From the NCBI GenBank assembly GCA_965215765.1, contig OZ244118.1, positions 2,415,801 to 2,479,800 on the forward strand: a stretch of DNA of 64,000 bases, given 5' to 3'. A model generated the notes under the pieces. It searched no databases, had not been told where the DNA came from, and worked only from the letters and a program-made list of their open reading frames with translations. Positions 17,427 to 23,754 of the stretch are shown piece after piece; the stretch's first letter is position 1; every line of letters starts with the position of its first letter. Both the position numbers and the translations under genes were made by a program. The stretch is from an uncultured candidatus Porisulfidus sp. Its GTDB lineage: Bacteria > Pseudomonadota > Gammaproteobacteria > Poriferisulfidales > Oxydemutatoraceae.

Positions 17427-18626
17427 TCAGCTTTCTTTGCCGAAAACCCGCCAGTACTCTGCAAGGCTGACTGTGCCAGCGGCGACCAGCTTCTTGGCGT
17501 GGTGTTGCAGTGGTTCATAGCCTGGATCTGACGACGCATCGATCAACTGAATTTGATCTGCGTTCCCGCTTCGGTTCACGCTGCGCGCCTTCCCCGGATC
17601 CAGAACCTCAAATACTCCGGTGCGGCCGCGACAACCGGTATACGAACAGTGTTTGCAACCCGTCCCGACAAACAGTTGGTGGTCTTTCAGTCCCGGTGCT
17701 TGCGACCACTGTTCTGAAGCCTCCTGCGGGGTTTTACAGTGTGGGCAAATGGTACGCAACAAACGCTGCGCCAAAACCAGGCTGATTGCTGCAGACACCA
17801 GATACAACGGAATACCAATGTTCACCAAGCGCGTAATGGCGGTTGCAGCATCTTGAGTATGCAGGCTGCTAAGAACGAGATGCCCCGTCAACGCTGCTTT
17901 TACTGCAACGTCCGCAGTTTCGTAATCCCTGATTTCACCCACCAGAATCACTTCCGGATCCTGGCGCAGAAAGGCACGCAGCACTTGGGCAAAACCCAAT
18001 CCGATTGCCTCGTGAACCTGGACCTGTGAAAGCCCACTCATACGCCGTTCCACCGGATCCTCAACCGTAAGTATGCTGAGCGTGCCGTCGTTGAGTTGCT
18101 CCAGAACGGTGTAAAGCGTAGTCGTCTTACCGCTTCCGGTCGGGCCGCAGACCACGATCATCCCCTGTCTTTTGCTGATCGCTGTTTGCAGGAAATGGCT
18201 GTCTGCAGGAGGAAGCCCCAGAGCCGCGTAATCAAAAGTTTGCTTCTGCTCTTTCAGCATTCGCATCGCAACACGCTCTCCGAACAGGGTTGGTACCGTG
18301 GAGACGCGTACATCAGTCGTGCCATGGCGGCATTCAAAGCGAAAGCCTCCATCCTGCGGCAGGCGCCGTTCAGCAATATCAAGAGCGGACAGAATCTTTA
18401 TCCTGGCGATGACTGCCGGCAGCATGTCACGCAGGAAATTCCCGGTTGGCACTTCCAGAAGCACCCCATCAATCCGGTAGCGCAGACAGGAACATTTTTC
18501 GTACGGCTCCAGATGGATATCGCTTGCTTCGTGCTGCAGCGCCATTTGCAAAATATTTTCAACAAAAGCGACAACGGATCCCTCGGTATTCAATTGGAAT
18601 GCTTCGCGGTTTGCCAACGCTTGCAT
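17427..18626 (-). CDS. Type II secretion / type IV pilus assembly ATPase, GspE/PilB family (short form lacking the N1 domain; C-terminal tetracysteine Zn motif)
   Basis: 399 aa. Walker A 'GPTGSGKTTT', 'RLPQDGGFR' and 'GERVAMR' GspE motifs, 'CPHCK...CKHCSYTGCRGR' Cys cluster. Confidence 0.8.
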   Translation of the reverse strand: MQALANREAFQLNTEGSVVAFVENILQMALQHEASDIHLEPYEKCSCLRYRIDGVLLEVPTGNFLRDMLPAVIARIKILSALDIAERRLPQDGGFRFECRHGTTDVRVSTVPTLFGERVAMRMLKEQKQTFDYAALGLPPADSHFLQTAISKRQGMIVVCGPTGSGKTTTLYTVLEQLNDGTLSILTVEDPVERRMSGLSQVQVHEAIGLGFAQVLRAFLRQDPEVILVGEIRDYETADVAVKAALTGHLVLSSLHTQDAATAITRLVNIGIPLYLVSAAISLVLAQRLLRTICPHCKTPQEASEQWSQAPGLKDHQLFVGTGCKHCSYTGCRGRTGVFEVLDPGKARSVNRSGNADQIQLIDASSDPGYEPLQHHAKKLVAAGTVSLAEYWRVFGKES

Positions 18627-18632
18627 GAGGGC

Positions 18633-21152: not shown

Positions 21153-22645
21153 AAGGGCGATCCCGGAATGTCGTGAAATTTCCCACGAAGCAGGAATGAC
21201 ATATTTTTTGAGCCTTGAGCGGAGCTTGCGTTTTTGTTTGCCATATTTTCCAACACCAGCCGTTTGATCGCTTTTTCTTTTTCCAGACTTTCAAAAAAGG
21301 AGTTCAGGACTGCATGGCTTTCGGCAATGCCGGTAATTTCAAAATCACCTTCGCGCAGCAGCAGAGACTTGAACCACAAGCCCCGTGGAGCGGCTTCGCT
21401 TAACAAGCCGAGGCGTGCATTCCCTACGGTGTGCGTTGCTTCCAACTGCCTGATACTTTGCAGTTTTTCCTGACCTGAACCGAGTTCCAGTTCTCGCTTT
21501 GCCAGCGTGGCTTCCAGGGTGGCAAAGAGAGTCTGCGTGTGGCGAAGTTGCTCATGTTGCGTCTCCAATTTTGTGCTTTCATCCAGAAGCAGTTTGTGGG
21601 CTCCCACGCAACTTCCAAGCATGAGGATTGCGGCAGACGCCAGAGGTACAAAATGCCTGTCTCGGAAATCACCACTATTTTCATTCGGAGAAAAATTGAG
21701 GCGTGGCAACGGTGGGCGGGGAAATATCCATTTGCGACTTTCCCGATATGTGGCCGAAAGGGCTGCCAGCACTGAGCGGGAAATATCCTGGCTTCTTTCA
21801 GCGAAAGCCGCTTGCGTGTGCCTATCAGGGTGAACCGTTCGCAGCACCAGCTTTGGCAGGCTTTTGCTCAGAATGGAAGGCCATTCATCAGAAGGTGCAT
21901 TCAAAAGAAATATCCTGACTTCCACGCTTTGATTTGGTGCCTCGTGAAGAAAGAAGTTTTCAATTTCTTCCGCCATTTTTTTCAGAAAATACGCATCTGG
22001 CATCTGGCAAAAAAAATTCGGAGGGGTTTGCGGAACACAACGCACCCGAATTTCAGAAGCTTGAAAGCTGACCAGACACACCCCGGCCGGATCAGGGAGG
22101 ATCCAATGGCATGCGGATTTTTCGAATAGCCCTGTCAGAAACTCCAGAAAAGCCACCGGGATTCTGGAAATTTTTATGCCCAGGTGTTTCGCAACTTGTC
22201 CGTAGAAACGCAGACAACGTCTCTCTGCCGCGCAGAGAAAAAGACCCGGGCGTCCGCCGTTGTTTCCAAGTTGCGCCCATTTCAAAACGAAATCACGCGG
22301 TTCAATGCTGAGGCGCTCACGCCAGAAGCTTTGCTGCGACAAAAGTCTGCGTATTTCCCGAGCTCCCATAAACGGCAGGGAAACAGTGGCAAAGCGGCAT
22401 TGGTCAGCTGCCAGCGAAAACATGCAATCGCCCGCCTGTACCGAGTGATCCCGCAACAGGCGATCCAAAGTTTGGGCACTGTGCCTGGCGCAGGAATCTG
22501 ACCAGGCATCGTCCTGAGTCGTCAAGGCGCACCCACCCGTTTTCAATACGCCACCGCGCAGACGCTGGGCAAAAAAGACACCTTGAGCGGACAGACCAAT
22601 AGCAACTGCTTTCTGTTTCAGGCGATTCGCAAATATCCTTAGCAC
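21149..22645 (-). CDS. PilM/PilN-like (MshI-like) fusion protein: cytoplasmic domain, TM helix, periplasmic PilN-like domain
   Basis: 498 aa. Internal TM segment 'VPLASAAILMLGSCVGAHKLLL' followed by a coiled coil. Operon context between the PilT-like ATPase and the PilO-like gene. Confidence 0.3.
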   Translation of the reverse strand: MLRIFANRLKQKAVAIGLSAQGVFFAQRLRGGVLKTGGCALTTQDDAWSDSCARHSAQTLDRLLRDHSVQAGDCMFSLAADQCRFATVSLPFMGAREIRRLLSQQSFWRERLSIEPRDFVLKWAQLGNNGGRPGLFLCAAERRCLRFYGQVAKHLGIKISRIPVAFLEFLTGLFEKSACHWILPDPAGVCLVSFQASEIRVRCVPQTPPNFFCQMPDAYFLKKMAEEIENFFLHEAPNQSVEVRIFLLNAPSDEWPSILSKSLPKLVLRTVHPDRHTQAAFAERSQDISRSVLAALSATYRESRKWIFPRPPLPRLNFSPNENSGDFRDRHFVPLASAAILMLGSCVGAHKLLLDESTKLETQHEQLRHTQTLFATLEATLAKRELELGSGQEKLQSIRQLEATHTVGNARLGLLSEAAPRGLWFKSLLLREGDFEITGIAESHAVLNSFFESLEKEKAIKRLVLENMANKNASSAQGSKNMSFLLRGKFHDIPGSPL

Positions 22646-23754
22646 CGCACGGCCCCCTCAGCGGCGATTTCCCCGCATTTCAACAGCTTGCCAACTGCTT
22701 TCTCCATGCTGGTCATTTCTTCTGTGCCAGAGGTCTGCATCAAGTTCGGCAACTGATACAAGCGGTCTTCCCGAATAAGCGTCCGAACCGCCTGATTGGC
22801 GTACAGGAATTCAAACGCGGCAACTCGTCCTTTTCCATTTTTCCGAGGCAACAGTTTCTGGTTCAGCAACAGAACCAGGCTGTCAGCGATCCGGCCAAGG
22901 ACTTCGGGTCGCACAGTATCTGGAAAAAGACCAGCGTACCTGCTGAGCGCGGCGGCGCAGGTTCCAGCGTGCAGGGTCGTCAACACCAGATGACCGGTTT
23001 CGGCCGCAGTCAAGGCCAGTCTCGCTGTTTCAGGATCCCTGATTTCGCCAACCAGGATGGCATCCGGATCTTCACGCAAGGCGACACGCAGGGCCGAAGC
23101 AAAATCACGAGCGTCTGTTCCTACTTCGCGCTGGGAAATGATGGAGCGCCTTGACCGAAACTGATGTTCAATGGGATCTTCTATGGTCAGTAAGTGTATT
23201 GCGCGTTGCGTGAGCAAATACTCGAGTAGCGAAACCAGTGTGGTGGATTTACCGCAAGCTGTAGGGCCGGTCACAACTATCAGACCGGCAGAAAACAGCA
23301 TGGAGCGCAAAGCCACCGAGGGCAGACCTAGCTGTTTCACGTCTGGAACCACTGCGTTTATTTTTCGCAAAACAAAAGCCGGGTTTCCGCTTTCAAAATA
23401 GTAGTTGGCTCGAAAACGAAACGCCCCAAGCTCGCAGCTGGTGTCCAGAGAGCGTTCCTCCTGCCAGCGTTTTTTGATGGCTGGAGACAGGTGAAGGGAA
23501 AGAAATTGTTCCAGCGTTTCGAGGCTGCACGGTTGTTGTGTGCCAACTTCCAACTTGCCGTCTTGCCTGAAAGCGAGGGGCAATCCGACATGAAAATGAA
23601 TGTCAGATACGCCAGCTTTTCCGGCGAGTGCCGTGATTTCATTTTGCAGGGCGTTCATGGCTGGTGGTTCCTCATTACGCGATTTTCTTTCAGCGTAGCG
23701 ATTGACTGACGCCAGCAGGCTCACCGGGCTCAAAGCCCGGTGCAATTGACCCAC
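22639..23754 (-). CDS. PilT-family hexameric ATPase (twitching-motility/retraction type)
   Basis: 371 aa. 'SDIHFHVGLPLAFRQDG' N-domain, Walker A 'GPTACGKSTT', 'LLTIEDPIE', 'ILVGEIRDPETA...AETGHLVLTTLH' PilT signatures. Confidence 0.75.
   Translation of the reverse strand: MGQLHRALSPVSLLASVNRYAERKSRNEEPPAMNALQNEITALAGKAGVSDIHFHVGLPLAFRQDGKLEVGTQQPCSLETLEQFLSLHLSPAIKKRWQEERSLDTSCELGAFRFRANYYFESGNPAFVLRKINAVVPDVKQLGLPSVALRSMLFSAGLIVVTGPTACGKSTTLVSLLEYLLTQRAIHLLTIEDPIEHQFRSRRSIISQREVGTDARDFASALRVALREDPDAILVGEIRDPETARLALTAAETGHLVLTTLHAGTCAAALSRYAGLFPDTVRPEVLGRIADSLVLLLNQKLLPRKNGKGRVAAFEFLYANQAVRTLIREDRLYQLPNLMQTSGTEEMTSMEKAVGKLLKCGEIAAEGAVRC

Follow-up and report, generated by a model that had tools for sequence, protein, structure and literature searches.

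The window of this study is a 64-kb stretch (64,000 nucleotides) of contig OZ244118.1 from an uncultured Candidatus Porisulfidus species. The organism belongs to Oxydemutatoraceae, a gammaproteobacterial family whose named species is a sponge symbiont, and our literature search on it returned the sponge-symbiont status only. In this window, we found six consecutive open reading frames (ORFs), all on the minus strand, which span 17427-23658 counted from the true start of the first gene. In order, they encode the ATPase PilT, a fused PilM-PilN protein (PilMN), a PilO-like protein, a PilP-like protein, a PilQ-type secretin and a short PilB, that is, relatives of type IVa pilus (T4aP) assembly proteins. 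This six-gene operon is real, and all six of its genes are under purifying selection.

Layout of the operon

The genes of the operon and the main basis of their identification are as follows (aa, amino acids).

22639..23658, minus strand: pilT, retraction ATPase, 339 aa (TIGR01420 and intact motifs)
21149..22645, minus strand: pilMN, fused PilM-PilN, 498 aa (Pfam PilN and family profile against PDB)
20580..21152, minus strand: PilO/GspM-like bitopic protein, 190 aa (position, size, transmembrane helix and weak profiles)
20240..20593, minus strand: PilP-like periplasmic protein, ORF of 117 aa (family profile against PDB PilP)
18633..20219, minus strand: PilQ-type secretin, 528 aa (Pfam Secretin, TIGR02515 and PDB PilQ)
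17427..18626, minus strand: short PilB/GspE-family assembly ATPase, 399 aa (Pfam T2SSE and PDB PilB)

Neighbouring genes overlap or almost touch. For instance, stop and start codons overlap at the pilT/pilMN and pilMN/pilO junctions, which are translationally coupled, and the gap between pilQ and pilB is 6 nt. The original prediction, made from the letters of this stretch, had placed a six-gene operon here, and all six minus-strand ORFs were present at the claimed positions, the first as a maximal ORF of 22639-23754 and the other five as listed above. However, the true start of pilT is the ATG at 23658, which gives the 339-aa protein and matches the gene calls in two related chromosomes (L001 and L002, see below). 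The GTG at 23754 was rejected as the start because the added 5′ part enters a tRNA remnant. Therefore, the same-strand spacer to the neighbouring giant gene exists as predicted, but it is ~755 bp long and not ~660 bp. In the PilP-like ORF, the likely start is the Met at 20557, which gives 105 aa. The predicted identities of the six genes were borne out by profiles, with that of the PilO-like protein resting on position, size, an N-terminal transmembrane (TM) helix and weak profile signals.

The two ATPases

The first gene passed the PilT/PilU model TIGR01420 with 337.4 bits (cut-off 319.1), and its AIRNLIRE-type PilT motif is intact (AVRTLIRE). Both ATPases of the operon keep Walker A, Walker B, the Asp box and the His box. 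The sixth gene matched Pfam T2SSE (4.4e-116) and PDB PilB (1.2e-99), and in the latter it was aligned to PilB residues ~176/200-532, to the end of the protein. Its score was below the cut-off in TIGR02538 PilB (445.7 bits, cut-off 675.65; model positions 174-561 only) and also in TIGR02533 GspE (439.2 bits, cut-off 630.25; model positions 102-485 only).

The sixth protein consists of the N2 domain and the catalytic domain, without the N-terminal N1/MshEN (T2SSE_N) region. The alignment begins at residue 229 of the 617-aa PilB of locus L012, and the 6 nt to pilQ leave no space for an N-terminal domain 5′ of the gene. From these alignments, we conclude that PilB is N-terminally truncated and has lost ~215 residues. 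Its catalytic core is complete and includes, besides the boxes named above, the tetracysteine motif of two CxxC pairs (CPHC...CKHC). An exact-protein look-up with the PilB of this locus gave no match. In addition, when metagenomes were scanned with the short PilB, only generic PilB genes of 36-58% identity came back, and no members of the family.

PilMN and the PilO-like and PilP-like proteins

PilMN carries a Pfam PilN domain at residues 414-484 (3.8e-8), its family profile matched both PilM (PDB 3jc8_M, 6.4e-10, positions 8-194) and PilN (PDB 3jc8_N, 5.5e-7), and there is a single TM helix at ~331-350. Thus, PilMN is a PilM-PilN fusion, which consists of a PilM-like cytoplasmic domain, the TM helix, a coiled coil and a PilN periplasmic domain. 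Only three close relatives were found among 5.8 billion clustered proteins, two of them on the complete chromosomes L001 and L002 described below, and HMMER found 15 relatives at E<=1e-3 among 1.84 billion representatives. Fourteen of these 15 are 421-579 aa long and one is a 191-aa PilN-only match; the Pfam PilN domain was present in nine of the ten relatives scanned. The AlphaFold model of PilMN, built from a three-sequence alignment, had a mean predicted local distance difference test score (pLDDT) of 37 and was too poor for use.

The PilO-like protein has an N-terminal TM helix (residues 9-35), a helical region and a C-terminal domain, and its gene sits between pilMN and pilP in 10 of 10 loci. 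The single sequence had no Pfam or NCBIfam match, and the family profile had no significant PDB match. Weak signals came from hhalign against the PilN part of PilMN (E 0.003, probability 10%) and from T2SSM or PilO matches at E~0.1 in three of nine family members. The single-sequence AlphaFold2 model was all-helical with a pLDDT of 62 and was not usable. For the PilP-like protein, the single sequence gave weak matches to TIGR03021 pilP_fam and Pfam T2SSC, both below curated cut-offs, and the family profile matched PDB PilP (3jc8_P, 4e-5; 2y4x, 7.6e-4). Furthermore, Pfam PilP is on record for the PilP-like homologues of three related loci (L002, L007 and L009).

The secretin

The secretin matched Pfam Secretin (1.9e-43) as well as Secretin_N. 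Its score in TIGR02515 PilQ (273.1 bits) was just below the cut-off of 284.35; the scores in TIGR02517 GspD and TIGR02519 MshL were 188.6 bits (cut-off 351.35) and 108 bits (cut-off 250.2), respectively. Against PDB, PilQ (170 bits) scored higher than GspD (99 bits), with residues 129-527 aligned. Judged by these scores, the secretin is closest to T4aP PilQ. The protein begins with a lipobox-like signal (..CLFGC), which is followed by a Lys/Arg-rich linker and by N0/N1 and secretin domains, and no AMIN domains were found in the cassette secretins. In addition, a Cys follows the signal-like hydrophobic N-terminus in 10 of 10 secretin homologues, and the lipobox context is clear in most of them. 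The secretin is thus probably a self-piloting lipoprotein without AMIN domains.

Conservation and selection

Two related complete chromosomes of Candidatus Oxydemutatoraceae metagenome-assembled genomes (MAGs) carry the operon, OZ243039.1 (L001, 1.92 Mb) and OZ250161.1 (L002, 2,000,500 bp). The protein identities between the window and these chromosomes are as follows.

PilT: 96% to L001, 82% to L002
PilMN: 89% to L001, 67-75% to L002
PilO-like: 87% to L001, 68% to L002
PilP-like: 80% to L001, 54% to L002
PilQ: 86% to L001, 79% to L002
PilB: 96% to L001, 89% to L002

The ratio of nonsynonymous to synonymous substitution rates (dN/dS) was 0.08-0.55 across the six genes. It was lowest for pilT and pilB (0.08-0.10 each), followed by the secretin (0.22-0.27), pilMN (0.29), the PilO-like gene (0.29-0.35) and the PilP-like gene (0.44-0.55); for the adjacent housekeeping gene thiO it was 0.23-0.27. 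Therefore, the operon is maintained by selection.

We also observed that pilMN of L002 (9327-10828, equal to L004 10733-12231) is frameshifted near codon 211, and its two halves have a dN/dS of 0.20-0.29. Either the lesion is recent or the frameshift is an error of sequencing.

Recurrence and ancestry of the cassette

The cassette recurs in 10 loci from about nine genomes. Each of the seven loci L005-L011 encodes a PilMN of 490-557 aa, a protein of ~195-220 aa, a PilP-like protein, a secretin of 472-552 aa and a short PilB. The leading PilT is present in the locus under study and in L001, L002, L005, L008 and L010, and it is absent from the cassettes of L006, L007, L009 and L011. Across lineages, PilMN identity falls to 17-21%, whereas PilB identity stays at ~50-55%. 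The clade of short PilB proteins (~390-408 aa, 48-55% identity) is found mostly on MAG chromosomes of 1.7-3.0 Mb that are labelled Gammaproteobacteria or Chromatiales.

The nearest full-length relatives of PilB, P0064 (613 aa) and P0055 (617 aa), are from non-symbiont contexts. Their operons encode, in order, a PilM_2+PilN fusion (555 aa), a PilO-like protein, PilP, a secretin, PilB and PilC (T2SSF), and in P0064 PilY1 lies upstream. By this order, two features are ancestral in this pilus subtype, namely the PilM-PilN fusion and the place of the assembly ATPase right behind the secretin. The original prediction had called the gene order unusual; that the order is odd in itself was not supported, since the ATPase-after-secretin arrangement is the ancestral one that these relatives share. 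By the same comparison, the symbiont clade has three derived features: PilC no longer stands after PilB, PilB is truncated and, in one subclade, PilT has been added in front. Taken together, the gene orders show that the cassette descends from a complete pilus operon.

Missing components

A six-frame search of the window found no prepilin motif, and tblastn with the PilC of L012 found no match in the window or in the 10 loci. By Pfam inventory, a prepilin peptidase is likewise absent from the window, although no direct search for PilD was made. The original prediction was thus right that the window has no pilin, prepilin peptidase or platform gene. Around the cassettes, no PilC, PilD or pilin gene was found within 10 kb in 10 of 10 loci (gene tables, and tblastn for PilC). 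The other genes of the window are housekeeping genes, including dsbD, cutA, pntAB, a HAD hydrolase, an aldo-keto reductase, SulP, trmB, thiG, thiS and thiO.

Some small ORFs were considered as pilin candidates and rejected. Those in L005 and L008 are tandem duplicates of gene junctions, and an 82-aa ORF 5′ of pilT in L001 is a duplicated pilT 5′ end.

Proposed function of the operon

On balance, we think that the operon probably encodes the envelope core and both motors of a retractile, T4aP-derived machine in a sponge-associated gammaproteobacterium with a chromosome of ~2 Mb. PilT and the PilQ-class secretin, both assigned by homology, point to a retractile pilus and not to an exporter of the type II secretion system (T2SS). 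The roles of the components follow the established T4aP architecture. The PilQ lipoprotein would form the outer-membrane channel, which would be linked to the inner membrane by PilP, by the PilO-like protein and by PilMN through its periplasmic PilN part. With its cytoplasmic PilM part, PilMN would dock the hexameric ATPases, of which the short PilB would drive filament extension and PilT would drive retraction. The missing pilins, PilC platform and PilD peptidase are presumably encoded elsewhere on the chromosome; T4aP genes are normally scattered over several loci. The pilus may be used for attachment to the sponge host or matrix and/or for DNA uptake.

Several observations weigh against this interpretation. 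None of the 10 loci has a pilin, PilC or PilD gene within 10 kb, although in the nearest non-symbiont relatives the gene directly after PilB is PilC. The N-terminal ~215 residues of PilB are missing. The frameshift in pilMN of L002 could mean decay in that lineage. Furthermore, giant GLUG genes, which are discussed below, lie near the cassette in two separate lineages (the window and L001; L006).

The absence of these components could also mean that the machine has been reduced and has no filament. PilC, PilD and the pilins would then have been lost, and the secretin, the alignment complex and the two ATPases would have some other function across the envelope, for example as a gate through which DNA or protein is taken up or released. 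PilC stands after PilB in the nearest full-length relatives and in none of the 10 symbiont loci, the N-terminal region of PilB is lost clade-wide, the genomes are small (1.7-3.0 Mb) and the genes are still under purifying selection, all of which would fit such a machine. However, the pair of extension and retraction ATPases fits a dynamic filament best, the normal scattering of T4aP genes makes a local gap less telling, and the absence of PilC and pilins is established within ±10 kb of the cassette only. In addition, we know of no type IV filament machine that works without a platform protein and pilins. We therefore regard a machine of this kind as unlikely. In a more specific form, a pilus descendant that has lost PilC, the peptidase and the pilins would be a powered outer-membrane gate for DNA or protein, conceivably including the Sec-exported giant GLUG/fn3 proteins encoded next to the operon in two lineages; this we regard as quite unlikely.

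Some of the same facts could be taken as signs of a decaying, non-functional pilus remnant in a shrinking genome, namely the local absence of PilC and pilins, the truncated PilB, the frameshifted pilMN of L002 and the tandem junction duplications within the operons of L001, L002, L005 and L008. However, the six ORFs are intact in the window and in L001, with the low dN/dS values given above, and the catalytic motifs are intact. The cassette has also been kept across lineages whose PilMN proteins have diverged to 17-21% identity, and even the halves of the L002 pilMN keep a dN/dS of 0.20-0.29. Decay is thus a very improbable explanation, and a working pilus core is the interpretation that we retain.

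Giant genes and the tRNA boundary

The features that flank the operon are as follows.

23659..23960, minus strand: conserved stretch 5′ of pilT (conservation against L001, partial against L002)
23690..23800, plus strand: degraded tRNA-Leu(CAA) remnant (alignment to the intact tRNA-Leu(CAA) of relatives)
24414..34910, minus strand: last giant gene of the tandem array, 3498 aa (Pfam Glug, fn3 and Peptidase_M26_N)
15675-16739, plus strand: thiO, convergent with the operon
16740..17426, no strand: spacer between the convergent ends of thiO and pilB (Tandem Repeats Finder, TRF, and self-BLAST)

As predicted, thiO is convergent with the operon. On the operon's other side, the giant genes are tandem paralogues, and their products carry Sec-type signal peptides and GLUG/fn3/M26_N repeats. 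Three of them lie at 24414-34910, 35407-45664 and 48422-58670, and one more runs from 61935 out of the window. The gene next to the operon matched Pfam Glug (6.7e-70), fn3 (4.5e-24) and Peptidase_M26_N.

We ran ARAGORN on the window and on seven relatives (L002 and L005-L010; L011 was not scanned). It reported no tRNA in the window. In the relatives, tRNA-Arg(CCT) and tRNA-Leu(CAA) lie directly 5′ of pilT in L002 and L010, tRNA-Arg(CCT) is upstream of the cassette in L005 and L008, and tRNA-Leu(CAA) is directly 5′ of pilMN in L006 and L007. Thus, of the seven relatives scanned, six have one or both of these tRNA genes upstream of the cassette, and in L009 tRNA-Leu(CAA) is one gene away. Aligned to tRNA-Leu(CAA), 23690-23800 still has the anticodon arm, but it has lost 20 nt of the variable/T arm and carries mutations in the acceptor stem. 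The same degraded tRNA-Leu(CAA) is found in L001, between pilT and the giant gene. The remnant marks the ancestral tRNA boundary of the cassette, and the giant array thus occupies a tRNA site that has decayed. Genomic islands are well known to insert at tRNA genes.

It was also observed that the cassette-linked tRNA-Leu(CAA) and/or tRNA-Arg(CCT) persist despite a PilMN identity of ~20%, while the downstream neighbours of the cassette differ (thiO, queA-tgt and RNase T).

Upstream of the cassette, L002, which is the sister genome from the same family, has tyrS and small genes and no giant gene. In L006 (11269-21185), a methyltransferase/CfrBI-type restriction pair comes after the cassette, and then, ~2.5 kb downstream, a convergent GLUG/M26_N/cadherin-like gene of >6168 aa. 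L007, the closest relative of L006, has no giant gene by the cassette. Because giant genes are absent from L002 and from L007, both adjacencies look like lineage-specific insertions at variable flanks. In the window, the giant GLUG/fn3 array looks as if it had been inserted at the tRNA-Leu(CAA)/tRNA-Arg(CCT) site that bounds the cassette, and its adjacency to the operon would then be a lineage-specific accident.

The ~300 bp 5′ of pilT are conserved in L001 and partly in L002, where no giant gene lies upstream. This stretch (23659..23960) probably holds the operon's own promoter. A consensus scan for promoters and terminators found no sigma-70 match on the operon strand here; overall, it gave fewer sites than shuffled controls, with no terminator-like site between the giant gene and pilT.

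The original prediction had proposed from the linkage that the secretin system exports or displays the giant proteins. In favour of this idea, the giant proteins have Sec-type signal peptides, through which they would arrive in the periplasm, and no recognisable outer-membrane route, the array contains no dedicated transporter gene, and it is adjacent to and co-oriented with the operon in the window and in L001; the distant L006 also has its giant gene near the cassette. However, synteny did not bear the idea out, since the adjacency is absent in L002, L005, L007, L008, L009, L010 and L011, and the arrangement in L006 is convergent with a restriction-modification pair in between. In the window itself, the tRNA remnant that marks the insertion site separates the array from pilT. 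Furthermore, the secretin is of the PilQ class rather than the GspD class, PilT is present, and the locus has no pseudopilin or platform gene. By a rough estimate, giant arrays make up tens of kilobases per 2-Mb genome, so two chance adjacencies in ~7 lineages are unremarkable. Thus, the linkage as a sign of export is not supported, and a role of the operon in exporting or displaying the giant proteins is very unlikely.

Some additional observations were made on the giant genes. The genes at 35407-45664 and 48422-58670 are each broken up into overlapping ORFs that lie in different frames (899 + 2561 aa and 1327 + 2181 aa), through either frameshifts or errors of assembly. Over their last ~120 residues, four giant C-termini (those of three paralogues and of the gene cut by the window end) are near-identical, which suggests gene conversion. 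The first 560 aa of the protein next to the operon (33231-34910) had no Pfam match and only three relatives in the 5.8-billion-cluster collection, all on short contigs. By eye, this N-terminal part contains His, Asp and Ser contexts that may resemble those of a trypsin-like protease (TAFHLF, GDWAIVRL and GASGST).

Tandem duplications at gene junctions

Long-period tandem duplications were found at gene junctions in the window and in several relatives. They are 140-464 bp long, occur in 2-6 copies that are 90-98% identical, and differ in the junctions that they affect. Their positions are as follows.

Window: 314-908, 7527-8926, 14474-15330, 16740-17426, 45445-47337, 47806-48309, 58451-60720 and 61188-61709
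Relatives: L001 8684-9183; L002 8189-9416; L005 9487-10128; L008 5297-5892

Within the operon, the duplications affect the pilT 5′ end in L001, the pilT/pilMN junction, five times, in L002, the pilQ/pilB junction in L005 and the pilMN 5′ end in L008. In the window, a ~140-173-bp unit, which takes in the thiO 3′ end, is present in 4-5 tandem copies and fills the spacer between thiO and pilB; the same spacer is only 76 bp in L001 and 67 bp in L002. In addition, the 377-bp repeats 5′ of two giant genes (45445-47337 and 58451-60720) carry truncated gene starts (MKEAGFRF..., a signal peptide and ~73 codons, then a stop), so that several decoy 5′ ends precede each of those two genes. Similarly, the HAD-family hydrolase gene (7341-8804) is triplicated by a 464-bp tandem repeat, which gives three ORFs with the same Hydrolase_like C-terminus. 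Such junction duplications seem to be habitual throughout the genomes of these symbionts, or they are possibly an assembly artefact.

Significance

The cassette illustrates how small symbiont genomes can compact a type IV pilus machine. One protein combines PilM with PilN, PilB has been shortened to the N2 and catalytic domains, a secretin of the lipoprotein type does without AMIN domains, and a single operon encodes both motors. The symbionts are uncultivable. The kept core of a retractile pilus suggests that attachment or DNA uptake is important in the sponge holobiont. If PilC and the pilins were gone genome-wide, the type IV filament superfamily would have its first filament-less derivative. 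A tempting link between a secretin and giant adhesin-like proteins has been removed as unsupported.

Comparison with known systems

The original prediction had noted a resemblance to assembly sets of the mannose-sensitive haemagglutinin (MSHA) pilus, the type IV pilus and T2SS. As an assembly set, the resemblance is confirmed; membership in T2SS and MSHA fails on curated cut-offs and defining parts.

Like T2SS, the cassette has a secretin and a GspE-family ATPase, and GspL is in effect a PilM-PilN-like fusion. In addition, there are weak matches of the PilP-like protein to GspC and of two PilO-like members to GspM. However, the scores are far below the GspD and GspE cut-offs given above, the GspE N1 domain that binds GspL is missing, PilT is the first gene, and GspF and the pseudopilins GspG-K are absent from the cluster. 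Membership in T2SS was therefore rejected.

The MSHA operon has the order mshI-J-K-L-M-N-E-G-F. Both systems thus have a fused PilM/N-like protein, a PilO-like protein, a PilP-like protein and a secretin, and then an assembly ATPase. However, the cassette has neither MshM nor MshN, for which the 6-nt gap between secretin and ATPase leaves no room, its ATPase is without the N-terminal region of MshE (MshEN) that binds cyclic di-GMP, and no MshG or pilin is nearby. Together with the low MshL score, these differences led us to reject MSHA membership. The Hof/Com competence pilus was also rejected (HofQ 177.5 bits against a cut-off of 554; ComGA 245.9 against 300).

HxcQ, BfpB and TcpC are lipoprotein secretins of T2SS-Hxc or T4b systems. 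The lipobox-like Cys is likewise conserved in the cassette secretins, which suggests self-piloting without a pilotin. However, those secretins belong to T2SS-Hxc and T4b systems, whereas the cassette secretin is nearest to T4aP PilQ.

With the T4aP of Pseudomonas aeruginosa and Myxococcus xanthus, the cassette shares the M-N-O-P-Q gene order and the retraction ATPase, and homologues of PilM, PilN, PilP, PilQ, PilB and PilT are the best PDB or NCBIfam matches. However, the cassette differs from them in that PilM and PilN are fused, PilB has no N-terminal domain, PilQ has a lipobox and no AMIN domains, and PilB and PilQ miss the curated cut-offs. Both ATPases are in the pilMNOPQ operon, and no pilBCD/pilin locus was seen in the window or within ±10 kb of the 10 loci. 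Full T4aP membership thus fails locally on PilC, PilD (by inventory, with no direct search), the pilins and the N-terminal domain of PilB.

The metagenomic operons (P0064, P0055; L012) share with the cassette the gene order and the PilM-PilN fusion, and their PilB and secretin are 48-49% and 34% identical to those of the cassette, respectively. They differ in that they keep PilC after PilB and ~215 more N-terminal PilB residues, have no leading PilT and are not from a sponge-symbiont context. The cassette is thus a compact one, and most of its occurrences so far are in MAGs with small genomes, among whose relatives is a sponge symbiont.

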